From IMG/VR virus record IMGVR_UViG_3300017963_000003, positions 96,001-160,000 of that record: 64,000 bases of DNA, one strand, 5' to 3'. This stretch comes from a virus. Positions 10,196-58,885 of the stretch are shown here, one piece after another; within the stretch, counting starts at the first letter, position 1, and every line of letters starts with the position of its first letter. The translations under genes were made by a program, and so were the position numbers. Below the pieces are notes generated by a model. It searched no databases. It saw nothing but the letters and a program-made list of their open reading frames with translations, and was not told the DNA's origin.

Positions 10196-10654
10196 CTACG
10201 CCACCTTGCGGCTGCTCCGCTTTTTCTTGTCGCGGGATTTCACGTAGAAGTCCTCGTAGCAGGTGTTGAAGACGTCCATGATGAACTCCCCAACCGAACC
10301 GAACCGAACCCCCACCTCTCAGACTCTTCTTCTACCCACAACAGCTCTTCCGAGCTGAGGCAGACCTTGACGAACCTCGTGAGATAACTCACGTGCCACG
10401 GCAGAAGTCCTAGACGAAATGCCGTCTCGTCGATGGTACGTCCTTGAGAGCGTAGGTGAATCATGTCTGCGATACGCTCCAAACCTCGTGCGGTCTTCAT
10501 CACTAGCACCTCCCGTACAGAAACCCGTACAACTCTAACACCTATAGCATAGGTGCAGAGGGGGTGTCAAGTTTTTCCCCATGACGTTCGTCTTTGTACA
10601 TTTACGTAGTCTTGTCAATAGAGCGCAGATTCACCACTTTTTTCTTGACAGCAG

Positions 10655-28700: not shown

Positions 28701-29273
28701 CCCTCCTCGCTCGTGGCCAGTGCGTAGACCATCTCGGGCACGGTACACTTCTCCTCCGAAGGCCAAGGCCACTCGGCCTTCTTGAAGCACTCGGGACAGA
28801 TACGATGGCCAGACTGAACACCGTCGGCGGCCTTCGCCATGCGACCACACCTCGAACAAACCCAAAGAGGTCCTCCGAGCAACTTCGACAATCGCTCCAG
28901 GGTATCTTGGTTCAGAACGCTGAAGCGGCTCTCGTGTTCGAGTATATTCTGACGCTCTGTGAGGCCCTGCACCATCCGTTCCAGCGCCCGCCTCTCCTGT
29001 GAGGCCTGCTGGTGCATATCTCGGAGAGTCAGGCAGCGGGCCTGGAGATTGGCAACACTCAGCTTCAAGCCCTCGCGGTCTTTGATCGTCGCGCGCAGCG
29101 CCGCCGACATTGCATCGATCTCATCGAGGATCTCAGCCTTGGTCCGTCTGTCCTTCGCATCACCCATCTCAGTCCTCCTTCTTCATCCGCAGCAGATCCG
29201 TACCGCCACCGGAAAACCGAACATTGCCCATCGTTTCGATCCTCCGTACCAGATCACGTACGACCCTCTATGC

Positions 29274-29301
29274 TATATCATAGGTCCAAGGTTCCTGTCA
29301 A
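29274..29301 (-). promoter_or_regulatory. Sigma70-like promoter downstream of the CRISPR array
   Basis: Minus strand TTGACA-N-TGATATAGC; the same design recurs at about 10.56, 17.29, 20.83, 23.89, 47.12 and 63.44 kb. Confidence 0.65.
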
Positions 29302-29339
29302 GCAGAAATCTTCTCACTGTCACAGACCATTCCACTACC

Positions 29340-30590
29340 GTCGAGACTTCTAAACCGTCTCACAGACATCGAGGGGATCGGCCAGTCGAGACTTCTAAAC
29401 CGTCTCGCAGGTATTGTAAGCTGAGGCGATGAACCGTATTGCCAACACGGCCCGACAGTCGAGACTTCTAAACCGTCTCGCAGGTATTGGAAGCCCGCGA
29501 GAGTGAGCGCGTCTCCAGATGAGGCCAAGACGTCGAGACTTCTAAACCGTCTCGCAGGTATTGGAAGGGCCTCATGGTAGAGGATGTTGTCGGCGCGGTT
29601 GGGGGTCGAGACTTCTAAACCGTCTCGCAGGTATTGTAAGAAGAGCAACGGGCGAAGTGAGGGTACCAAGCACTTTGCGTCGAGACTTCTAAACCGTCTC
29701 GCAGGTATTGGAAGGGCGATCCCGAAAAAGATCGCGGCTTGGCCTCTCAGTCGAGACTTCTAAACCGTCTCGCAGGTATTGTAAGAACTGCGTGTTCGGG
29801 CTCCAGCTCAACCCGGCCTCTCAGTCGAGACTTCTAAACCGTCTCGCAGGTATTGTAAGCTCCGCGCGACGGAAGGGTAACGTCTACATCACCACGTCGA
29901 GACTTCTAAACCGTCTCGCAGGTATTGTAAGAGTGGACTGGCAACCACTCCAACGGAGAGTGGCGTCCGTCGAGACCTCTAAACCGTCTCGCAGGTATTG
30001 TAAACAAGGGACGGTGCGCGCCCTGGGCCAGGCCTCCGGGATGTCGAGACTTCTAAACCGTCTCGCAGGTATTGGAGGACCCCAACCGGGGAAAGCACAG
30101 TAGAAAAGGAATGTCGAGACTTCTAAACCGTCTCGCAGGTATTGTAAGTCGGGTACCAGCCGAGAAGGTGTGTACCTCTACCATCGTCGAGACCTCTAAA
30201 CCGTCTCGCAGGTATTGGAAGGGTCGGGTTGCGCGGTGGTCGGGATTCGACACCTCGGGTCGAGACTTCTAAACCGTCTCGCAGGTATTGGAAGCTGGTG
30301 ACGCAGGTCCGGGATGGGGCGTTCTGCAAGCTGTCGAGACTTCTAAACCGTCTCGCAGGTATTGGAAAAAGAGCAACGGGCGAAGTGAGGGTACCAAGCA
30401 CTTTGCGTCGAGACTTCTAAACCGTCTCGCAGGTATTGGAAGACGGAATGCGGCGTGAAGCTGGTGGAGCATCCGGGTGTCGAGACTTCTAAACCGTCTC
30501 GCAGGTATTGTAAGCAGGATTTCTCGGTCGAGCGTGCTGAGGTTGGCCATCTTCGTCGAGACTTCTAAACCGTCTCGCAGGTATTGTAAG
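29340..30590 (-). CRISPR. CRISPR array: 17 complete 36-nt repeats plus one degenerate trailer repeat; 16 spacers of 34-40 nt plus a truncated terminal spacer
   Basis: Plus-strand consensus GTCGAGACTTCTAAACCGTCTCGCAGGTATTG(T/G)AAG starting at 29385, 29458, 29532, 29605, 29679, 29750, 29824, 29896, 29969, 30043, 30113, 30186, 30259, 30333, 30407, 30479, 30555; degenerate copy at 29340. Transcribed form CTT(A/C)CAATACCTGCGAGACGGTTTAGAAGTCTCGAC has a CGAGAC/GTCTCG hairpin and a 3-prime GAC. Orientation is inferred from the trailer decay and cas gene position. Confidence 0.97.
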
Positions 30591-30756
30591 GGCGCTTCGC
30601 CAGATCACAACAATTTCAGCAAGTTTGCTCTATGATTTCGAGCGGTCCACCACGACTGCCGTCGCGCCCAGAATTTCTTCAATGGTTTCGAGCACCAGGC
30701 CTCACCACGACCACAGCGCTCGCCAAATTGTCAAAGAACCAACCGACCCGAACCGC
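30591..30756 (-). promoter_or_regulatory. CRISPR leader with boxA-like site
   Basis: Minus-strand GTTCTTTGACA at 30729-30739; direct repeats ATG(A/G)TTTCGAGC at 30632 and 30682. Confidence 0.65.
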
Positions 30757-32685
30757 TCACACCGAGGGCTGCGCAGCCTCCTGGGACTTACGCTGCTGAA
30801 CGATCTTCTTCCCCTTCTTGCGCCCTTTCTGACGTCTCGACATCTTCGGCTCGACAGGCACGCTCCCGTCGATCATCTTGAGGGTCTCGTCGTTCCTGTA
30901 CAGACGCATGATGTTCCGTGCGGCATTCGCATCCTGGTCCCACTTCGCACCGCACTCCACGCAGACATGATCGACCTCAGGAATAGCATCCCAGGGCTCC
31001 AGGCAACCGCACTCGAAGCACCGCTGGGTGGTCATGCGGGCATCGACCCAAACCACGGTCCCTCCGCGCGCGAGGAACGCCTGGACGAACATCATCCGCA
31101 GCTCGTAGCATGCGGCCTCTTTCTGCTGGTTGCGCGCGGCCTGGATCTCCACCTTCTCGCTCTCAGGGGGCTCGTGCTTCTGCGTCTCGGTGAGCTTGAA
31201 ATCCTCGATCACCAGCACCTTGTACTTCCGGGCCAGCTTGGCCGCCACCCTCCGGTAGTGGTCCTTACGGCGCCTGAGAGACTTCTGCTCCTGGCTCTCC
31301 TTCCACTGCCATAGGTGTCGGTCGCCTCCGTCCCTGCGGCCCAGGGACTCCTCGTAGGTCCCACTCAGCCAGTCCTTCAGGATCTGGAAGCCCTCTCCGT
31401 CTCCATCCCATCTCTTCTCCCCCCACTTGCGGAGGAGCCCAGCGTAGCGCTTCGGTGACTTCCACGAATGCAGGTATCGCACATCCTCACGGAACCACTC
31501 GGGCAGATTCTTCTTGTTCGACTTGATCCACCCCTTGAGACTCTTCTGCATCTCGTTCTGGTTCAAGGCCCGGATCGACTGAAGACTCTCCACCTTGTCG
31601 AACCCCCGGACCACCTCGGGCTCCATGAGCAGCTCGTCTCCGCGACCCAGCGGGTCCTGGCGGTCTCTCAAGTACGCCGCGTACTCATCCCCGTCCACCA
31701 GGTACGCCACCCTGATCTGATCCTCTCCGCGCTTTCTCCAACCGATGTCGACAGCCACTGCCCCACGTCCACTCCCGAACTCCTCGTGCTGGTACTCAGC
31801 AGGGAGGCCCAGGCTGAAGTGCACCGTCCACCGAGGACGATCAGAGATCATACGCCGCTTCACGACGGCCCACTTGATCCGCACCCCCTGGGGCAGCGGA
31901 CGGTGCATGATGATAGGGAACTCCGCCCAAACAGGACCTCTGCTCTTCGTACTCCCCACTCGGAGCCGCATCACCCCACGACGCTTCTTGCGCCGCGTCT
32001 TCGACACCACCCCCTCGGGTGGCGGCTCCATGTCTACCTGGAGGAACGTATCCTCCCCTGAGAAGATCTTCTCCACGGGGTGCTTGTCCCCTTGAAGCTG
32101 TACGGCAACCGTACCGTCACCCCTCCACTGGAGAAACTTCGGGTCGAGAGGTTGTCCGTGCTCGTCCCACATCTTCAGATCTCTCCGCGAATCCTCCATC
32201 GCGTTGTCCACCTGAAGGTAGGTTCCCCAGAACAAACCCTCCCGGCTGAACCCCTGCTGGGCCGCCTGGGACTTTTCCGAAGCTGTCAGGTTCGCCTCGC
32301 TCAACCTCTTCTGCAACTCCTCGTCGAGCTTCAACTCCTTCCGAGCCTCGCTCAACCTCTTCGCCACCTCCTGGGCCGCCTTGCGCGCTTCCTTGACGCG
32401 GGCTCGCTGCTCGGCCGTGTCTGAACGCGATCTCGTCTTCGCCCTCTGACGTTTGAGGTCCTCTGTGGCGCGCTTCAACTCGCTCTTCGCCACCTTGTCC
32501 TCTTCGACCAACCCCTCCAAGGCCAGATCACGTTCATCGTAGACCTCTCTTACCTTTTCTCTCCGCTCACGCTCGATCTCGATGAGCGCGTTCCGGTACT
32601 TATGCGCCAACCTCATCTGCTCCTCCACGAGATCAGCATTGACCGTCGGTCCCAGCGGCAACCCGTACACATACGTCTTCGTCAT
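30757..32685 (-). CDS. cas12m: Type V CRISPR effector, Cas12m (V-M/V-U1)-like, 642 aa
   Basis: Motifs I recall from MmCas12m: QMRLAHKYRNAL, long coiled coil, GLFWGTY...DGTVAVQLQ, SWKSPKRYAGL. RuvC-I AVAVDIGWR, RuvC-II VLVIEDF, Zn finger CFECG/CVECG, RuvC-III WDQDANAARNI. Directly upstream of the array. Confidence 0.85.
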   Translation of the reverse strand: MTKTYVYGLPLGPTVNADLVEEQMRLAHKYRNALIEIERERREKVREVYDERDLALEGLVEEDKVAKSELKRATEDLKRQRAKTRSRSDTAEQRARVKEARKAAQEVAKRLSEARKELKLDEELQKRLSEANLTASEKSQAAQQGFSREGLFWGTYLQVDNAMEDSRRDLKMWDEHGQPLDPKFLQWRGDGTVAVQLQGDKHPVEKIFSGEDTFLQVDMEPPPEGVVSKTRRKKRRGVMRLRVGSTKSRGPVWAEFPIIMHRPLPQGVRIKWAVVKRRMISDRPRWTVHFSLGLPAEYQHEEFGSGRGAVAVDIGWRKRGEDQIRVAYLVDGDEYAAYLRDRQDPLGRGDELLMEPEVVRGFDKVESLQSIRALNQNEMQKSLKGWIKSNKKNLPEWFREDVRYLHSWKSPKRYAGLLRKWGEKRWDGDGEGFQILKDWLSGTYEESLGRRDGGDRHLWQWKESQEQKSLRRRKDHYRRVAAKLARKYKVLVIEDFKLTETQKHEPPESEKVEIQAARNQQKEAACYELRMMFVQAFLARGGTVVWVDARMTTQRCFECGCLEPWDAIPEVDHVCVECGAKWDQDANAARNIMRLYRNDETLKMIDGSVPVEPKMSRRQKGRKKGKKIVQQRKSQEAAQPSV

Positions 32686-32728
32686 CTCTTGCCCTCCTCG
32701 GCGTACCAGCCCTCATACCAACCTAGCC

Positions 32729-32758
32729 TATATAGCACAGAGACACGGCCGCTGTCAA
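32729..32758 (-). promoter_or_regulatory. Promoter of the cas12m-array unit
   Basis: Minus strand TTGACA-18nt-TATATA with an extended TG. Confidence 0.7.
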
Positions 32759-32987
32759 CCCTCAAGCCCATCTGGGTCTTCGTCAGAGGTTGGCGCAACC
32801 CTACCTGGGTTACCTTGGGTTGGGGTACCACTTGGCGCGGAGCGCCTACCTTGTGGTGAACCCCTGGTAGACCAGTCGCCGCAGGCGACGATCCTTACAA
32901 CAACCCTACCTCGGTACCTCAACCCCTCCGTAGATGTTCTCGAACCTCGTACACTTCAACCTACCTTGCCGCCGCCCCTTGCGACCT

Positions 32988-33053
32988 CCATCAAGTACCC
33001 ATCAAGTACCCATCAAGTACCCATCAAGTACCCATCAAGTACCCATCAAGTAC
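32988..33053. repeat. Six perfect tandem copies of CCATCAAGTAC (11 bp)
   Basis: Units counted at 32988, 32999, 33010, 33021, 33032, 33043. Confidence 0.95.
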
Positions 33054-33184
33054 CAACCCTCCGTCAACCCTCGGCCTACCAGGTGCGAGCTACCCCACCT
33101 CGTGCACAGTTGTCCAGTACCGGTCTACCTTGGGCTACCTTGGCCGTCTATACGTGAGGGTACGACGTTGGCCCAATGTGGTCG

Positions 33185-33300
33185 AAAATGGGACCCAAAA
33201 AATTTCCCAAAATTTTTCCCAATATTTTCAGGCACTTAGCCAGTATATATTGGCTATAAATGGAATTTTTTGGGAGAATTTTTGGGGTATGGTGGGTGGG
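33185..33300. other. AT-rich tract with imperfect dyad symmetry
   Basis: CCCAAAAAATTTCCC...GGGAGAATTTTTGGG around the near-palindrome GCCAGTATATATTGGC, in a GC-rich background. Confidence 0.7.
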
Positions 33301-33459
33301 GTGAAGCCCGCGATCTCTTTCGCGATCCGTTGCAGATCGTACCCCCACCCCCGGCGATAATCACTTAATCCCCGCCAAGTATTGGGAATCATTGGCTAAT
33401 CTCCCGGTCCCAGCCGGACCTGCCCAGGGATTAGGCGATCCCATCGGCAACAGTAGGGC

Positions 33460-43607: not shown

Positions 43608-44613
43608 CTAACCGGATTTCCCAGAGTCGATACCAGTCGTGTACAGGGACAGCCCGCGCTCGAATCGCTGCGCGCGTTTGTCCCTCCACCGCTCGACCTT
43701 TTCGTCCTCGTCGAGATCATCAAGGACGTGGATCTCAGAGTACGCCAACTTGATCGCATGGATCTTGTCACGTATCGACGTGATCTGAGGAGACAGCTCG
43801 CGCCGGGGATCGAGAGGGAACGACGTCTCCAGCTCGGCCCATTGACCGGGCATGATCTCGACGAAGAATCGGGTCTCGACTAAGAACTGCCGCTTCTCGG
43901 GATCGGATTCGTCTCCGTGGTATCGCAGCTTACGATACTCGTCGGGCAGATTCTCGCGCAACACGTGACGGAGCAAGCTCTTCATCTGCGCGAACGGATG
44001 ATCGTACGTCGAGGGAAACTCGACCTCGGCCGCCAGATCCTCTACACGCGTGATTGTCTTTTTCGCTCTCATCGTACGTGACCCTCCTCGTCCTCCCACC
44101 AGAGCAAGACACTGACGATCCGCTCCAGCATTGTATCTGTGATCTCTCGCTCCTGGATCGCGCTCCACGTGCGTTCCACGAGAGGCATCATGACCTCGGG
44201 CAGCGGGTGGCGATCCTCTATCACCATCTGGATCATCTGCTCCAACTGCTCCCGACACAACGGGGTACCCATTACGCGCGCCCTCCGACGAGCATACGAG
44301 CGATACGCAGCTCGCGCTCGCCCGCCTCGACCTCCAAACCGAACTCATCCGCGACGGTCAATGCGTCCTCGACGTACATCCCGATACGAAATTCCTTGCC
44401 TTCGAGGTCGAGAACGGGAACCGACGCATGGTCGCTGATCTTGACGGCTCGTGTGTGATCGATCCAGAGAACGTCGTCCTCGGTCGTGTGAGGGTATTTA
44501 CCCGACCGGTCAGCAACAGCGATCCGGGACTCGTGCGCGCCCGTGGTGGCAACGAAGAACCGATGACCATTTTTGAAGTCGAGCACCTTCTTCCACGCGT
44601 ATTCTCCACTCAT
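43608..44613 (-). CDS. Three hypothetical genes (43608-44072, 44069-44272, 44272-44613)
   Basis: Coupled ORFs downstream of the helicase. Confidence 0.6.
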
Positions 44614-44622
44614 CGTCCCCTC

Positions 44623-47055
44623 CTATCGTTCCCGAATGTAATCGCAGTACTCCGAGTACTCCAACCGGTCCGTGTGGTCCACGTCGTCGTCCGGGTCGAG
44701 CAGACGCTCGAAGAACTCGACGATGTTGACCGATCCCTCGACCTCGATACCCTGGTTGATTGCGTCGAGGATCTGCTCCTTTTCCTTGATCAAACCGATC
44801 AGATCCGAATCGAACGTCCCCTCGGCGTACAGCCAGTAGGAGTTGACAGAATCGGCGTCCGTACCAAGTCGGTGACACCGCGATTCAGCCTGATACAACG
44901 TAGCGGAATTCCACGGAAATTCGACGAACGCCACGTTGCTCGCCGCCTGCTGCAATCCGTCGAGTCCGGTACCGGCAGCCTGAATCGACGCCACCATAAC
45001 GCGGCACGAGGGATCGTCCTGGAACCGCTTGACCTCCGCTGCGCGGGTGGAGTCGGAATCTCCCCCTCGGATCTTGGCCGGGCATGCACACGCCAACGCG
45101 GCATGCAGACGATCCTGCACGTCCCGATGGTGGGCGAACACGACGATCTTCTCGTCGGACCCTTCCAGGAACGACTTGATCCACTCGATGCACGATTGGA
45201 TCTTGTGGGCCACGACGATCTGCTTCAGCCCCTCGATCCGTACCAGAGCCTCGGCCGTGTATTCGGAACGCGATGTACTCGCGTCTCCGCGCTTCGCCGC
45301 CATCCACCCGATCAGATCCTCCAGGCCGCGACGATACACCTCGATACGATCCAGCTCGACCGGGATCTCGGTACGCTGAAGGGCGGGGAGTTCTTTCGCC
45401 ACGTCTTTTTTCTCGCGCCTGACCATGCACTTGGATCGCAGGTGCGCCGCGAGATTGTCCAGGTTGCTCGCCCCTTTCATATCCCAATACCCGTTGATCT
45501 TCTTGGCATCGCAGTACGTCTTGACGAAACCCCAGAATCCACCGAGATCGTCCAGGCGATCCAGGAACGACAGCTGGTTGACCAACTCGACCGGACGATT
45601 GAGGATCGGGGTAGCAGTCAGCGCGAGCTTGTACACGACCGACGGCAGCCTCCCCAGCTCGATAACAGCCTTCGACCGTTGGGCCTTACGGCTCTTGATA
45701 TAGTGCGACTCGTCGAGGATGATGGTCTGGAACGGGATCGTGAGGAGCTTGTCCAGGTGCTTCGTGAGCACATCGTAATTGATCACGAGGTAGTCAGCGC
45801 GATACGCATCGTCACCCGAGATCTTACCCCCGTTGAGAATCCTCACGGATCGCGACGGGAGCCAGCGGCGCACTTCGTTCGCGAAGTGATGCTTCGTCGC
45901 CTTCGGACAGATGATCAACGCGGGGAACGCGTCCGCCACGTGCGGGACCAGGATCGACTGAGGGGTTTTCCCGAGTCCGGTATCATCCCCGAGGATCGCC
46001 CGCTTGGCGTCGAGGCAGTAGGCGATCCCGGCAGCCTGGAACGGGTAGGGAGCCAATCCCTCGGCCACCCCCTGCACGTCCAGATCCGCGCTCGCCGCGC
46101 TGCTAGCCGCGATCCGCGCCTTCGCCTCCTCGCCCTGGGCGTCCAGCCTGGCGCGGGTGGAGTCGGACATTGTCCAGCTGTACCGCTCGGCCAGGGCGAG
46201 CACCGCGTCGGACGCCATGGCGTCCAGCGGGCAGGTGTTGACCTTGCGCTGACCATCCCAACGTCGTCCAGGGATCTGGCGCATCGCCTCGACCGCAGCA
46301 GGATCGTAGGGGGTGCGCAGGACGATCTTGCCCTTCTCGATCTGGACGTTGTCGGGGGCCTCGGCCTGGGCCTTGCGCGAAGCTCGGTCGGCGCGCTCGA
46401 TCCCCTCGTCGACCTTGGCCCGGTCGGCGTCACGGATCGCGAACTCGAACCGGTCCAGGATCGCGGGGACCTCGGCCAGGCCCGCACCGACGACCTCCCA
46501 CCGGCAACGTCCACCGTTCCACTTACGGACCTTCCAATCGATAGCCTTGATCGCATCGATCAGGTCAGAATCGCGCGGGGAGTAGAAGGCGATCCCCTCC
46601 AGGATCTTCCCTCGGATCTCGATGGTCCCGGTCCACTCGGCCCAATAGAGCCGCTTGCCGTAGTGCTCGCGGAGATCCTCACGGGTAGCCTCGCCGCGCC
46701 CGTAGCGCTCGCGCAGCTGCTCACCTTCGATCCGCCCGGCCTTGGTCTTGAGGGACTTGCGCCGCTTGGCCGGGGTAGCGTCCCCGCCCCACTCACGCGG
46801 CGGCACGGTCAGCTCGGAGTACGTGATCCCGAACCCGCTGAGCTGCTTGGAGTACTTCTTGAGCATGCGATGGACTTCGAAACAGGTCTCGCGATCCCAC
46901 GAGGACTCGTCGACCAGGGCAATCGAGCGACCGAACGACGTATCGCTGGAATTGAACCCCATCCGGTCGTCTTCTCGCGCACCGTCGCAGACGACAGCGA
47001 GACTCATGGCGGCCTGGCGAAGCTCCGTGGCGATGCTGAGAAGATCGTTGTCCAT
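44623..47055 (-). CDS. SNF2/SMARCAL1(HARP)-like SF2 helicase, 810 aa
   Basis: PYPFQAAGI Q-motif, DDTGLGKT, LIICP, ILDESH, LTATPILN, MVRREKKDV, QAESRCHRLG. N-terminal segments IDAIKAIDW-RKWNG..RWEV and EAMRQIPGRRWDG.RKVNT resemble HARP domains. Confidence 0.88.
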   Translation of the reverse strand: MDNDLLSIATELRQAAMSLAVVCDGAREDDRMGFNSSDTSFGRSIALVDESSWDRETCFEVHRMLKKYSKQLSGFGITYSELTVPPREWGGDATPAKRRKSLKTKAGRIEGEQLRERYGRGEATREDLREHYGKRLYWAEWTGTIEIRGKILEGIAFYSPRDSDLIDAIKAIDWKVRKWNGGRCRWEVVGAGLAEVPAILDRFEFAIRDADRAKVDEGIERADRASRKAQAEAPDNVQIEKGKIVLRTPYDPAAVEAMRQIPGRRWDGQRKVNTCPLDAMASDAVLALAERYSWTMSDSTRARLDAQGEEAKARIAASSAASADLDVQGVAEGLAPYPFQAAGIAYCLDAKRAILGDDTGLGKTPQSILVPHVADAFPALIICPKATKHHFANEVRRWLPSRSVRILNGGKISGDDAYRADYLVINYDVLTKHLDKLLTIPFQTIILDESHYIKSRKAQRSKAVIELGRLPSVVYKLALTATPILNRPVELVNQLSFLDRLDDLGGFWGFVKTYCDAKKINGYWDMKGASNLDNLAAHLRSKCMVRREKKDVAKELPALQRTEIPVELDRIEVYRRGLEDLIGWMAAKRGDASTSRSEYTAEALVRIEGLKQIVVAHKIQSCIEWIKSFLEGSDEKIVVFAHHRDVQDRLHAALACACPAKIRGGDSDSTRAAEVKRFQDDPSCRVMVASIQAAGTGLDGLQQAASNVAFVEFPWNSATLYQAESRCHRLGTDADSVNSYWLYAEGTFDSDLIGLIKEKEQILDAINQGIEVEGSVNIVEFFERLLDPDDDVDHTDRLEYSEYCDYIRER

Positions 47056-47099
47056 GTTGCCCTCCGGGTTGCGCGAGTCGGTCAGAACCCGCTAGCCTA

Positions 47100-50000
47100 T
47101 GCTGCCAATATAGCATAGGCTCACCCCGCTGTCAAGCCCTTTCTCCCTACTCGATACCCGTCGTGAGCCGACCGACCTCATTCCCGTATCCGTACCTGGA
47201 CGGCACGTGTACACGGATCTCCACCCCGTCGACCGTGAACAACTCGCGATCCAGGATCTCGCGCACCTCACGGATCAGATCCGCTTCGTTGTCGTCCTCA
47301 TAGGGATTCCACGCCAACGGCACCTCGACCGTCGGCCGGTTCCAGTTTTCGTTCCCTCTCCGATCCTTGTCCGGTTCCGGGCACCAGACGATGTGCGCCA
47401 TACGCACGTCGTCCTCGTCCCCCACGCCGCGCCGAACACGCACGTCCACGTGCACGGGAGGATGGAGGCGCTCCGACTGGTTGAACACGTCGATGGCCCG
47501 CTGGATACGGTCACGTGTCTCGGAGATTGACGACAGCAACCTCTGCACCGACTCCACGACGTAGGTGCGCGGGCTGTCAGTACCGTCGTCCTCGTGACCA
47601 CCCGCCTCGACAATCAGGTCAGCGGGGATCTCCCGGAGTGTCTGCTCGGACAACGCATCGACCTCCGCTGTGAACTCGCGCAGCATCTCGGGAGTGATCT
47701 CCGCTAGCGGGGTCTCTCTGATCGTCCGATGGAAACGACCCCTCAACTTCGTCGCCGGGGTAGCTCTACTGAACCGGAACGAGCCTTCCTGAGCGGCACC
47801 CACGATCCACGTGAGCCACTTGCGGAGCGTAAACGATCCGTCATACGCGGGACGACCGGGACGGTCGAGATCGTACTCGCGCTCCTGGCGCTCGTGAGAC
47901 TCCTTGAACGCGCGGGCGCAACCCGGACAGCGACCCTCCCCAGTGCGGTCCTCGCGGATCTTCACCTCGCGACCCTCCAGGAGAGAGATCCCGTCGAGCT
48001 TCTTTTCGATGAACCGCTGAGCCGCCGCCTTCGAGTCGTGCTTGCATTGCGCGAGCGCCCGGTGACGGATCTTGTCGGAGACCTCTCCGATCTCGCAAAG
48101 GGGAGTACCGTCGACTTCGATGAGACACTTGATACGCTTGGAACCCATGTTGCCCTCCGTGTCGCCGGCCAGCGGTCATCACCAGCCTGATAAACCCAGC
48201 TTACCACCCTTTGCAGCCGGTGTCAAGCAAAAAATGACACCCGGCTAACTATTCCCGGTCGAGGCGACCCAGCTCCTTCGCTCGCGGTCCCTCGTTACGT
48301 CATACACGGCATCGTACACGTCCTCGATCATCGCCTGTAACGCGAGCTGGCACACGATACCAGGGGTCCCCGCAGACGTATCGAGATCCATGCTGCCAAT
48401 ATCCATCGAATAGAGATTGTTACTCGCGCCCAGGATCGTCAACGAGAAGCGATAGTTCAGCTGACGATCCGACGAGAACGGGGTCGAATGGATCGCATCC
48501 TCGACGATCCCCAAGCCCTCGCCCTCGAAGTCCGCATCGAACCCCGCTGCGATCAGTCCCTTAGCCAGATCCGTGACCACCTCGAAATACTCCTCGGAAC
48601 CCATCGGTGTCATCTCAGCCTCCCTGGTAGCGATCCCTCTATGTCTAACGACGCCAGTGGTCGAAACGAGATTTCGCGCGCTCGACCACATAGGTCGTCG
48701 GTGTCCAGCTCCGTGCGCAATCGTCGCACACCAGGCGACCCGTGCCGAGCGCGGTAGGAGATCCCTCGTTGGTCTCGACGAGATCCCCGCGCTCCACGCA
48801 GCCGCGCTCTACACGATCCACCTCGAAGGTCCGCACGACCCTCTCCACGTAGAGCAGTCGGCCCCCGCAGTCCAGGCACACCGGGCGTGAGCTAGGCATC
48901 GTCCCCTTCCTCCTCGTCGTCGGCGTTCCGGTCGTCATCTTCCTGGCACCAGCGGCAGATCCGGTTCCCATCGGCATCCGTGAAAGACAGCTTCTCGCCG
49001 CCCTCCTCGGCCGGATCGATGATCCCGTCGCACCGCTCGCATCGGTCGCAGAAACAATCCTCACAGAGAACGGTCGTGAACACGATCCCGATCCCGCCGT
49101 CGCCATGGTAGGCGTTCTCGTCGTGGAGAGCGCCAGACGACAGAGATCCCTCGCGGGGATAGGTGCGCTCCCCGCAGTACGAGCACTCGTAAAACATCTT
49201 GTTACGACCGAGAATCTTGTTCACCCTCGCGCACACACGCCCGACGTTGGTCGGGTTGTTCTCACGGGCGAACTCCAGGATCGAAGCGTTGTCGCGCAGA
49301 TCGTACACGTAGACCCCGCGCTCGTCATCGGCGCTCGCGGCGACCCGACGGGCTTCGTCGGGATCGGTGATCCCCTTGTAGCCCGACGATGCGACGTCTG
49401 CGAACTCCCCGTTGTCCCCCAGGAGAAAAAAATTCCACTCCCAGATACAACCATCGTACCCGCCACCCTTGTACTGTACCAGTTTCATCGCGTTGCCCTC
49501 CGTGTTGTCGCCAGCGAGTCACCGCCAGCCTGATAAGCCCAATCTATCATACCCGGAGCCGGGTGTCAAGCAAAAAATGACACCTATCTCGACCTGACCT
49601 CGGCATGGCGGAACTCGTACCCCCTCAGCAGACCCTCTTGGTACGCCAACTCAAGATCGTCGTCGTCCGAGTAACGATAGTACACGCACGGACCATCACC
49701 ACCAAGCCAACGAGCATACGAGAGATTGGACCGGACCTGCATAGCCGCATAGAGCAGCTGACACTCCTCGCAGCCGCAGAGGATCATCACGCGCCTCCGG
49801 GTCCGTCGGATTCGACCGCCAGAGACACCTCGACCACACCCCCGGAGAACAGAACGTGCAGCTCCGCGAACTTGTTGATCGCAGCAGCACGTTCGTCGCA
49901 CACGATCTCCACGACCGCCGACTCGGAATCCCCGTAGACGACGATCTGGATCTGCGCCACCCGCGATCCGTCGCTGAGCGTTCCCTCCACGAGACGAAGT

Positions 50001-57217: not shown

Positions 57218-58885
57218 TTACTGCTGCGGACGCTGCGACCGGGGGACCGATCCGCTCATCTCCCCAGCGAACCGGAGGATGGCATCCGACCACCCGCCGA
57301 GGATGAACGTGCGGTCGTAGAACTCGGGCACGATGGTGTCCTGGTAACCAGCAATCTGCACCAGGTAGACCATGACGTTCGGGTTCACCTTGTTCCGGTA
57401 CTCGATGATGAGCTTCGGAACATCGATGTGATTCCCGCTGCCCGGCCACACGTACCGCATGTAGTCGGCCGAGTTGACCCCGTACAGACCACCGTGACCG
57501 GCCTGCATGTCCGAGTACACGAACACGTGGTCCCAATGCTCGCCGTTCTTGATCGCCTGGTCCCAGAACAACCAGATACCGTTCTCGGTGCCAGCGCCGA
57601 TACGCTGACCCTTCCGGTTGAGTTGCTCAGTCTGCTCGAACACCGAGGCCTTCTTACGAATCGGCATCGTCACCAGACGGTCACCGAACACTCCGGCATA
57701 CCCTTCCTCGGAAGCCATCCCAGTGATGACACCGGTCAGGTTACCGATCTCGGCCACGTGCATCGTCCCCGACGAGGAGGTCATCGAACCCCAGGCAGAG
57801 CCGCTGTTGTCGCACAGAGACATGCACCGACCCTTGAAGACCGGAACGTTCTCCAAGATCGCCACCTCCAGACACTCCTCGACGGCGTCCAGGAGCAACG
57901 GAGACGGGTTCTCCGCCTTCAGGGCATTGTAGGCCGCGAAGTACCGGAACGGCAGCTGACGTCCCTCAGGGGCACCGTCGACGAGCTTGCCCACGAACTC
58001 CTTGGGGTCCACGCCGGCCTGAGTCAGGTTCCGCAGGTTCCGCAACAGCGCCATGTGGCCCATCTTCTCGATGGACTCACGCCACGCAGCCTTGGTCGAC
58101 CCCTTCTCCGAGATCAACGCCTCCCAGGTATCACCGGTCACCTTCAGCTCACCCTTGGAGAGCTTCGACACCGCATCCGACGCCGGATGGCAGATGTTGA
58201 CGACGTCCACGAGCTTCACCTCGCGAGACTCCATCCGGTACTTGGCCAGCTGGTACTCGCTGAACCCTTCCAGGACGAGCTTCCACGCCTTCTTGAGCGC
58301 GTTCGGAATCCGCTGTCGTCCGTACTTCTGGATCTGGTAGGCCAGTTGCACAGCCGGTTCATCCGCTCGCACCATGACCTGCTGGGCGTACTTGCGCACC
58401 AATCCCGTACCCTTGACCGACGGGTGATGGGCCGCGCGGACCATGATCACCTGCGGGGTCGTACGGATGTTGTACGTGCGCCCCCGCAGCTCAACCGCCA
58501 GCTGGAGAGTCCCCTCGGGGTCGTGCCCCAGGGCCGCGTCGATGGCGGACTCCATCAGCTCGGCCGGCTCCATGCCCCTCCACTCCCGAGGGTCTTTGGC
58601 GTCCAAGGTCTCCCGGAGATGCTGCAACTGGCGGTTGTCGAGGCGGCACCACCTGTCCATCGTCATCACGTTCTTGCGCCGCCTCGTCTGATCCCCGTGG
58701 TAGTACATCGGCTCACCGAAGAAGCACGAGGCCGCAGCCATCCGCAGCTGGTCGAGGGGGTTGTCCACGGAGTAGGAGCGCCCGCCCATCCAGTTCAGAT
58801 GCGCGTTCTCCGCTGCGTACTCTTCGTGTTCTCGTCGTTGCCGTCGATGCTTGACCGACGCCGTCGCAGTTCGATTGATGCCCAT
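57218..58885 (-). CDS. rsr: Ro60/Rsr-like TROVE + vWA RNA-binding protein
   Basis: FFGEPMYY, LAVELR, RADEP, YQLAKY, TWEALIS, MALLRNLRNL, QLPFRYFAAY, vWA MIDAS CDNSGS, VYSDMQ. Confidence 0.9.
   Translation of the reverse strand: MGINRTATASVKHRRQRREHEEYAAENAHLNWMGGRSYSVDNPLDQLRMAAASCFFGEPMYYHGDQTRRRKNVMTMDRWCRLDNRQLQHLRETLDAKDPREWRGMEPAELMESAIDAALGHDPEGTLQLAVELRGRTYNIRTTPQVIMVRAAHHPSVKGTGLVRKYAQQVMVRADEPAVQLAYQIQKYGRQRIPNALKKAWKLVLEGFSEYQLAKYRMESREVKLVDVVNICHPASDAVSKLSKGELKVTGDTWEALISEKGSTKAAWRESIEKMGHMALLRNLRNLTQAGVDPKEFVGKLVDGAPEGRQLPFRYFAAYNALKAENPSPLLLDAVEECLEVAILENVPVFKGRCMSLCDNSGSAWGSMTSSSGTMHVAEIGNLTGVITGMASEEGYAGVFGDRLVTMPIRKKASVFEQTEQLNRKGQRIGAGTENGIWLFWDQAIKNGEHWDHVFVYSDMQAGHGGLYGVNSADYMRYVWPGSGNHIDVPKLIIEYRNKVNPNVMVYLVQIAGYQDTIVPEFYDRTFILGGWSDAILRFAGEMSGSVPRSQRPQQ

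Follow-up and report, generated by a model that had tools for sequence, protein, structure and literature searches.

Cas12m is the effector of subtype V-M (formerly V-U1) of the CRISPR-Cas systems, and four clades of it have been distinguished (Wu 2022, cited in PMC10442227). Two members with solved structures, MmCas12m2 (8hhl/8hio; Wu 2022, Omura 2023) and GoCas12m (8pm4), are encoded by bacterial or plasmid-borne loci; V-M systems are enriched in plasmids and also occur in some prophages, according to a review. Eight orthologues were compared by Bigelyte et al. 2024, four with a D-E-D (aspartate-glutamate-aspartate), two with an H-D-D and two with an N-D-D triad in RuvC; binding of double-stranded DNA (dsDNA) dependent on a protospacer-adjacent motif (PAM) was found, and dsDNA nuclease activity was found in none of them (PMC11013384). 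Binding by Cas12m without cleavage is also known from bioRxiv 2026.03.26.714355. In a preprint of September 2026, MvCas12m of the myxophage MV-1 (610 aa, D305/E463/D555; bioRxiv 10.64898/2026.09.14.751636) is presented as the first such effector to come from a phage. Here we describe a cas12m gene with an adjacent CRISPR array in a 64,000-nt stretch of viral DNA (the window), which represents bases 96001-160000 of the single 192,260-bp virus record IMGVR_UViG_3300017963_000003; the analysis was extended to the full record. Our preferred reading, to which we give a probability of about 0.7, is that of a V-M module whose Cas12m processes its own CRISPR RNA (crRNA) and acts against related mobile elements by binding DNA without cutting it.

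The locus shares its main features with the described systems. As in the MmCas12m2 and GoCas12m loci, there is no trans-activating CRISPR RNA (tracrRNA) and there are no adaptation genes, and the 36-nt repeat, which contains a pseudoknot and a stem, ends in GAC; the module differs from them in being located in a lytic-type 192-kb phage genome and in its D-E-D triad, where both of those proteins have H-D-D. D-E-D orthologues such as MsCas12m of Meiothermus silvanus, and the members of clades 3 and 4 with D-E-D, carry the canonical triad in a Cas12m scaffold, as this protein does. The MV-1 module also consists of an effector and an adjacent array without cas1, cas2, cas4 or tracrRNA. By its description, however, it contains 8 spacers, for which neither turnover nor a self-match is reported, whereas the present module has 16 and polarised sister arrays and, unlike that of MV-1, is conserved in three related phages of 190-205 kb. 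A phage Cas12m as such is therefore already known, and this lineage adds detail.

The source of the window is a complete 192-kb tailed phage carrying a self-contained cas12m gene and array. This identification is based on the direct terminal repeats with which the record is classed as a virus in IMG/VR, on a CheckV completeness of 100%, and on genes for a portal protein, which matches phrog_16240 (2e-66), for tail fibres and for a DnaB-like helicase; the record also encodes a large helicase as well as a topoisomerase. The record begins and ends within a short GC-rich tandem repeat, GCAGCGGCAGCCGG...GCCCATGGGAGG (G000:C1:1-100; 192160-192260), and the direct-terminal-repeat call therefore rests on repetitive coding-like sequence. 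About three quarters of the open reading frames (ORFs) lie on one strand (154 of 211 in a crude tally). Cas1, Cas2 and Cas4 gave zero Pfam matches in the complete record, while control genomes did give matches, and no anti-repeat was found, as the longest match to the repeat outside the array, in the whole genome, is 12 nt. An Rfam search gave no match in the cas12m locus. The description of the system in the earlier note as phage-borne and stand-alone, with no cas1/2/4 or anti-repeat, thus holds across the complete genome.

The 642-aa product of the gene is a Cas12m effector. The PADLOC profile Cas12u1, an old name of V-M, matches residues 2-595 with an E-value of 1.3e-101, whereas the profiles of the other V-U types (Cas12u2-u4, 1e-8 to 1e-11) and of Cas12f as well as the NCBI TnpB model cover the C-terminal RuvC and zinc-finger part only (1e-8 to 1e-12), with the TnpB model NF040570 scoring 1e-12, under its cut-off. 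The best solved relative is PDB 23vw_A ('CRISPR-associated DNA-binding protein Cas12m'; 3e-66, residues 11-595), which resembles this protein in its D-E-D triad, zinc finger and overall length class, although its chain A of 577 aa is 65 residues shorter. Further PDB matches are to Cas12m2 (7e-28), UnCas12m4a and GoCas12m (both ~3e-20), and Cas12f/TnpB (5e-6 or weaker). An AlphaFold2 model from 51 homologues (predicted local distance difference test, 90.7; predicted template modelling score, 0.84) contains long REC helices at residues 17-84, 91-117 and 122-148 that match the Cas12m coiled-coil 'Roof'. Cas12m proteins in general are bilobed: the REC lobe bears this coiled-coil ('Roof' or REC2) beside WED, RuvC has an inserted helical part, and a TNB domain holds the zinc finger. 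The top Foldseek hits of this model are Cas12m2 8hhl (template modelling score, TM, 0.70/0.76) and GoCas12m 8pm4 (TM 0.73/0.77), with all other Cas12 and TnpB structures at 0.6 or less. Though distant in sequence, MmCas12m2 and GoCas12m thus have the same fold, including the REC coiled-coil insertion and the His-Arg pair of the WED domain.

This pair, His261-Arg262, aligns with the 'VHRWLP' segment of Cas12m2, where His269-Arg270 read the last bases, at the 3' end, of the crRNA repeat (PMC10442227). The C-terminal part matches Pfam PF07282, Cas12f1-like_TNB (1.3e-11, residues 529-592), and this TnpB/Cas12-type domain occurs in a single copy genome-wide, the cas12m gene itself. In the homologue alignments A2 and A4, D583 never varies, and D585 is conserved throughout A4 and almost throughout A2. 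Purifying selection acts on the gene: against a 98%-identical copy on another metagenomic contig (L002), the ratio of non-synonymous to synonymous polymorphism (pN/pS) is 0.20, from 20 synonymous and 14 non-synonymous differences. The assignment to the Cas12m family, proposed in the earlier note from the letters alone, is borne out by profile, structure and fold, and the 642-aa ORF contains all the motifs that had been read in it, VDIGW, IEDF and DQDAN (D313, E494, D583/D585); by its profile scores, it does not group with IS-associated TnpB.

The array encodes guides of the Cas12m type. Read on the minus strand, its 36-nt repeat is CTTMCAATACCTGCGAGACGGTTTAGAAGTCTCGAC. Eighteen repeats had been counted earlier, and eighteen copies of the repeat core are indeed present, of which seventeen are canonical; repeat 18 (29340-29375), located 9 nt after repeat 17, retains only the 3' 22 nt and is the decayed trailer-end repeat of the usual picture. 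The 16 full spacers are each 34-40 nt long, and fifteen of them are unique because S03 and S13 are the same; S11 and S12 are identical over their first nine bases. Pairing is possible within the repeat between ACC (-28..-26) and GGU (-17..-15), as a 3-bp pseudoknot, and between CGAGAC (-23..-18) and GUCUCG (-8..-3), as a 6-bp stem, at positions that agree with the short pseudoknot helix and the stem beside the guide in the repeat handles of Cas12m2 and PmCas12m (PMC10442227 for Cas12m2). In nineteen viral Cas12m repeats, from this phage and 18 other viral loci, 92.4% of the cells in both helices are paired, where shuffles give 66% and controls with slid partner columns 34-47%, and changes on both sides were found in 41 cells where 12 are expected. 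The same pseudoknot pair is, for example, A:U in this phage and C:G in the related phage G001. This covariation of pseudoknot and stem indicates that the array is transcribed in the direction of the gene.

The promoter of the module lies 73 nt upstream of the cas12m ATG. Its motif, TTGACA-N14-19-TATA[GT], was found in 10 copies on the minus strand and in none on the plus strand of the whole genome, with 0.2 expected per strand. A promoter before the effector, as noted earlier, is supported by this genome-wide count, though it was missed by a generic sigma-70 and terminator scan, which gave chance-level counts and listed nothing upstream of cas12m. No terminator-like site was found by the terminator scan between promoter, cas12m, leader and array. 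Copies of the motif at 32758 and 29301 bracket the module (Table 1), and the first of these, an extended -10 type phage promoter, would drive gene, leader and array as one unit. In the window the promoter family, TTGACA-N14-19-(TGn)TATA[GT], occurs at 10570, 20845, 23903, 29301, 32758, 47135, 50869 and 63462, with two more copies outside it at genome positions C1:22320 and C1:170456. The transcription units behind these ten promoters probably form a single temporal class, transcribed by the sigma-70 polymerase of the host.

Table 1. Coordinates of the annotated features of the cas12m module (positions of the window unless indicated).
Feature	Position	Strand	Description
cas12m gene (P0001), 642 aa, V-M effector	30757..32685	-	Supported by profile, PDB, fold and pN/pS
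RuvC-I Asp313 (VDIGW)	31747..31749	-	Aligns with Cas12m2 His (ALHLGW) and 23vw Asp (AIDLGW)
RuvC-II Glu494 (VIEDF)	31204..31206	-	Nearly invariant in alignment A2, invariant in A4
RuvC-III D583-Q584-D585 (DQDANAARN)	30931..30939	-	Conserved in homologue alignments A2 and A4
Zinc finger/TNB, C556-x2-C559...C575-x2-C578	30952..31020	-	Cysteines invariant or nearly so
WED His261-Arg262	31900..31905	-	Counterpart of Cas12m2 His269-Arg270; invariant in A2 and A4
Promoter of the module	32730..32758	-	TTGACA -35, 18-nt spacer with TGn extension, TATATA -10
Leader	30591..30756	-	166 nt, from cas12m stop codon to first repeat; blocks CTCTTTGACAA, TCGAAAYSATTGAAGAAAT, GGACCGCTCGAAAWC
CRISPR array	29340..30590	-	17 canonical 36-nt repeats, 1 degenerate terminal repeat, 16 full spacers
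Spacer S03	30369..30406	-	Same sequence as S13 (29641-29678); the two delimit the ten-unit block absent in L002
Spacer S04	30295..30332	-	Own-genome match at G000:C1:162475-162512, outside the window
Next promoter, same motif family	29273..29301	-	39 nt past the last repeat; end of the module

The RuvC triad was the feature on which the earlier note laid most weight. Its statement that MmCas12m has H and D at the first two positions is correct: MmCas12m2 is H-D-D (PMC10442227), and in our alignment its 'ALHLGW' and 'VDD' segments correspond to VDIGW and IEDF. The present protein does keep D-E-D (D313/E494/D585) in place of the H-D-D of clade 2, and its triad places it in one of the D-E-D/N-E-D clades (clade 3 or clade 4 of Wu 2022), in which D-E-D, N-E-D or D-N-D occurs. 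The further step of taking this triad as the sign of a cutting-competent or ancestral V-M relative is unsupported, since D-E-D is the commonest state of the family and four orthologues that have it do not cut. In two exhaustive protein searches it was found in 169 of the 238 nearest homologues (71%), the others having N-D-D, N-E-D, H-D-D or other combinations. It was also found in 28 of the 43 other viral ORFs recovered from IMG/VR and in 23vw_A (AIDLGW/LEEF/DQDYNAAKN). In a FastTree phylogeny of 265 relatives, the character 'D-E-D or not' switches at least 34 times, so that the function of the family does not depend on the triad; evidently no catalytic RuvC is needed for it. All eleven members of the immediate clade are D-E-D, and relatives just outside it, 43-48% identical, are N-E-D or N-D-D.

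Binding-based silencing is thus the likeliest mechanism of this Cas12m by analogy with its characterised relatives. The D-E-D orthologues bind PAM-flanked dsDNA without cutting it and process pre-crRNA without RuvC, as the RuvC mutation D274A left pre-crRNA processing by MsCas12m unaffected (PMC11013384). If these properties carry over, the protein would cut its own pre-crRNA without RuvC, and the resulting ribonucleoprotein would locate PAM-flanked dsDNA, stay bound to it uncut, as characterised Cas12m proteins including the four with D-E-D do, and block transcription or replication of the target. A single Mg ion holds the displaced strand in Cas12m2 (PMC10442227), and the acidic residues are probably kept for such metal-mediated holding of the displaced strand and not for hydrolysis.

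The alternative that survives best, although we consider it improbable, is a nuclease-competent Cas12m whose D-E-D site cuts or nicks the target or degrades single-stranded DNA in trans, as in Cas-phi (Cas12j) and Cas-lambda (Cas12l/n). These, too, are compact type V systems of large phages with small arrays and neither adaptation genes nor tracrRNA, and are thought to act against competing elements, as is proposed here; however, they form separate Cas12 families (Foldseek TM 0.33 or less), cut DNA actively and use RuvC to process crRNA. An intact D313/E494/D585 triad and zinc finger agree with this alternative, as do the uniform D-E-D state of the eleven-member clade and the triad's presence in 71% of the 238 homologues, and Omura et al. 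suggested a possible two-metal DNA hydrolysis by clades 3 and 4 (PMC10442227). Against it stand the four D-E-D orthologues without dsDNA nuclease activity, the at least 34 changes of the triad in the family, also in relatives 43-48% identical, the deposition of 23vw, the closest solved D-E-D relative, as a DNA-binding protein, and the H-D-D to D-E-D change in Cas12m2, which did not bring back cutting (PMC10442227). That this clade has kept some nuclease activity has, in our estimate, only a slim chance. A similarly slim chance is given to the combined possibility that the uniformly D-E-D phage clade is an RNA-guided DNase or nickase whose array is refreshed by host Cas1-Cas2 through the leader blocks; if true, this would provide a compact 642-aa, tracrRNA-free, phage-derived cutter.

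Several points weigh against binding-based silencing of related elements as we propose it. The uniform state of the eleven-member clade and the retention of the triad in 71% of the relatives indicate some selection on its residues, the hydrolysis that Omura et al. allow concerns the clades to which this protein would belong, and no tested D-E-D orthologue is known to be close to the eleven-member clade. The class of target rests on a single near-self match, that of spacer S04, as the other spacers gave no protospacer in the searches described below. Differences in spacers between related contigs, which are described below, could be the result of recombination between arrays instead of acquisition. 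Finally, none of 185,579 species-representative genomes contains the repeat, and neither a host nor a host array with it was found. A protein-pattern scan of the same genomes gave one distant match, 29% identical, in a metagenome-assembled genome of Dehalococcoidia.

The module is not restricted to this phage. While a single-protein scan of IMG/VR gave no matches, an alignment-based scan succeeded and found 54 viral loci with Cas12m relatives, many of them on 100-205-kb contigs, and in ~20 of the 54 the array lies directly 3' of the gene. Among the carriers are G001 (188.5 kb) and G003 (205.6 kb), both complete phages. Their portals show 61-82% identity to that of this phage, and their Cas12m proteins, ~47% identical to this one, are accompanied by closely related repeats. 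No genes other than cas12m and the array are shared in the 5-kb flanks of the related phages, which indicates a module in variable surroundings without a partner gene; PHROGs assigned no function to the small flanking genes. The array of G003 (L013:6860-9180) is long and heterogeneous, with several variants of the repeat, in which the stem halves co-vary as GAGAC/GTCTC, GGGAT/ATCCC and GGGAG/CTCCC, and with some irregular spacings (125, 350, 55, 472 and 217 nt), and looks like several fused or interrupted arrays. A 4.8-kb Ga0272442 contig from another project (L074:2920-3200) has a near-identical repeat, CTTACAAAACCTGCGAGACGGGTTAGAAGTCTCGAC, and the same leader block, GGACCGCTCGAAA; this contig comes from a second environment, and so the phage group or the CRISPR module is not confined to one sample series.

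Comparison with sister contigs revealed differences in spacer content behind a common leader. L002 has the same leader at 100% identity, and that of L073, a sister-sample contig of 1.3 kb, is nearly the same; a leader alignment shows its three blocks to be common to this phage, G001 and L074. On its leader side L073 has nine spacers unlike those of the window, followed on the trailer side by a spacer that matches S16 at 31 of 37 nt and then by one further unit. A differing leader end over a common trailer-end spacer is the signature of polarised acquisition. In L002 the array consists of S01, S02 and then S13-S16, the ten units between the identical S03 and S13 being absent, and the simplest explanation is that they were lost by recombination between the duplicate spacers. 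The cas12m genes of the window (30757-32685) and of L002 (327-2255) differ at 34 of 1929 bases, but from the leader through the common part of the array to the promoter region downstream the identity is 100% (window 29250-30756 against L002:2256-3170), which suggests a recombination boundary near the cas12m stop codon. As the complete phage has no adaptation gene, its spacers must come either through proteins supplied in trans or through recombination with other arrays. Judging from the arrays, new spacers would join at the leader end, probably through adaptation proteins that are provided in trans. The suggestion in the earlier note that host adaptation machinery is borrowed thereby receives indirect support, from the turnover of leader-end spacers and the conserved leader blocks.

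Only one spacer had any match, and this match is to the phage itself. Of the 38 positions of S04, 34 agree with the phage genome; they include an exact core of 28 nt (BLAST E 7e-11), and the mismatches fall at position 2 and at positions 31-33 of the guide. The 5' flank of the site is ...ATTCCGC. The site is located inside a minus-strand gene of 126 aa (C1:162330-162710) whose codon-position GC profile is that of the real genes of this genome. PHROGs assigned no function to this gene, and no homologue of the region was found in G001-G004. Protospacer searches covered exact or near-exact matches only. The spacer region had no blastn matches in GenBank phages or PLSDB plasmids, the cores of S04 and S03 had none in an exact scan of IMG/VR, and the JGI metagenomes, scanned for exact matches, had none to the 5' part of S04. 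In the entire records of the related phages G001-G005, the only matches were from repeat to repeat. In the opposite direction, neither the 171 spacers of other viral Cas12m arrays nor those of L073, L074 and L013 have a significant match in this phage.

The likeliest origin of S04 is a close relative with the same gene, the phage itself being spared by the PAM-proximal mismatch or by the flank. The targets would thus be competing mobile elements, most likely close phage relatives, with superinfection exclusion as the outcome; for this use, which had been proposed earlier in general terms, the near-self spacer gives indirect support. Programmable repression of genes of the host or of the phage itself, with guides of the S04 type tuning the expression of a gene of the phage in the course of infection instead of serving defence, is less likely still than a nuclease. 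It could draw on the match to the 126-aa gene and on the fact that Cas12m silences, so that self-targeting need not be lethal. However, only one of the fifteen unique spacers matches the genome, the mismatch at position 2 looks more like self-avoidance, and the fast replacement of leader-side spacers between sister contigs fits immunity better than a fixed regulation.

That the module is an inactive relic, captured from a plasmid or host and no longer working, appears very unlikely. The lack of adaptation genes, the duplicated spacer, the degenerate terminal repeat and the negative target searches are all consistent with such a relic, but the gene is under constraint, the catalytic, zinc-finger and crRNA-reading residues are all intact, the 17 near-identical repeats stand behind a promoter of their own, arrays differ between sister contigs, and three complete related phages have kept the module. 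An IS200/IS605-type TnpB with an omega-RNA in place of a CRISPR effector, towards which only the weak C-terminal match to the TnpB model points, was rejected as having practically no chance, given the full-length Cas12u1 match, the Cas12m fold with REC insertions in 642 aa, the single genome copy and the 18-repeat array with its covarying crRNA scaffold 3' of the gene. TnpB proteins of this type are ~400 aa long and usually present in several copies, with an omega-RNA from the right end of the transposon and without a CRISPR array.

Some other features of the window were observed in the course of the annotation. Upstream of the cas12m promoter lies a non-coding stretch of ~0.65 kb (32759-33400) that is dense in short repeats, among them ~7 tandem copies of the 11-nt unit GGTACTTGATG (minus strand, 32977-33064) and six minus-strand copies of AGGTAG between 32801 and 33140; the window count of AGGTAG is 43 against 19 expected, and the AT skew switches sign at ~34 kb. 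An iteron-type origin is one possible reading of this stretch, a protein-binding array another. An 896-aa ORF on the plus strand (44428-47118) has no family match and is most likely a shadow ORF of the GC-rich 810-aa helicase gene (44623-47055, minus strand; phrog_62, 2e-102) that lies inside it in antisense. A 555-aa protein encoded at 57218-58885 on the minus strand matches PHROG 850, 'RNA-binding protein' (6.5e-36).

The claim with which the earlier note was headed, the retention of a canonical triad, is of little value because this triad is the commonest state of the family and is non-cutting in four orthologues. As a tool, the protein, at 642 aa, joins hundreds of candidate DNA binders that could serve in base or epigenome editing. 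For the phages themselves, the findings indicate that large uncultured phages of a whole lineage keep a Cas12m module stably and under selection, an addition to the very recent claim of V-M in a phage. Sister arrays behind one leader, in a phage without an adaptation gene, provide a concrete case for the acquisition of spacers in trans, and a near-self guide with a mismatch in the seed is the pattern that would be expected if these phages silence their close relatives.

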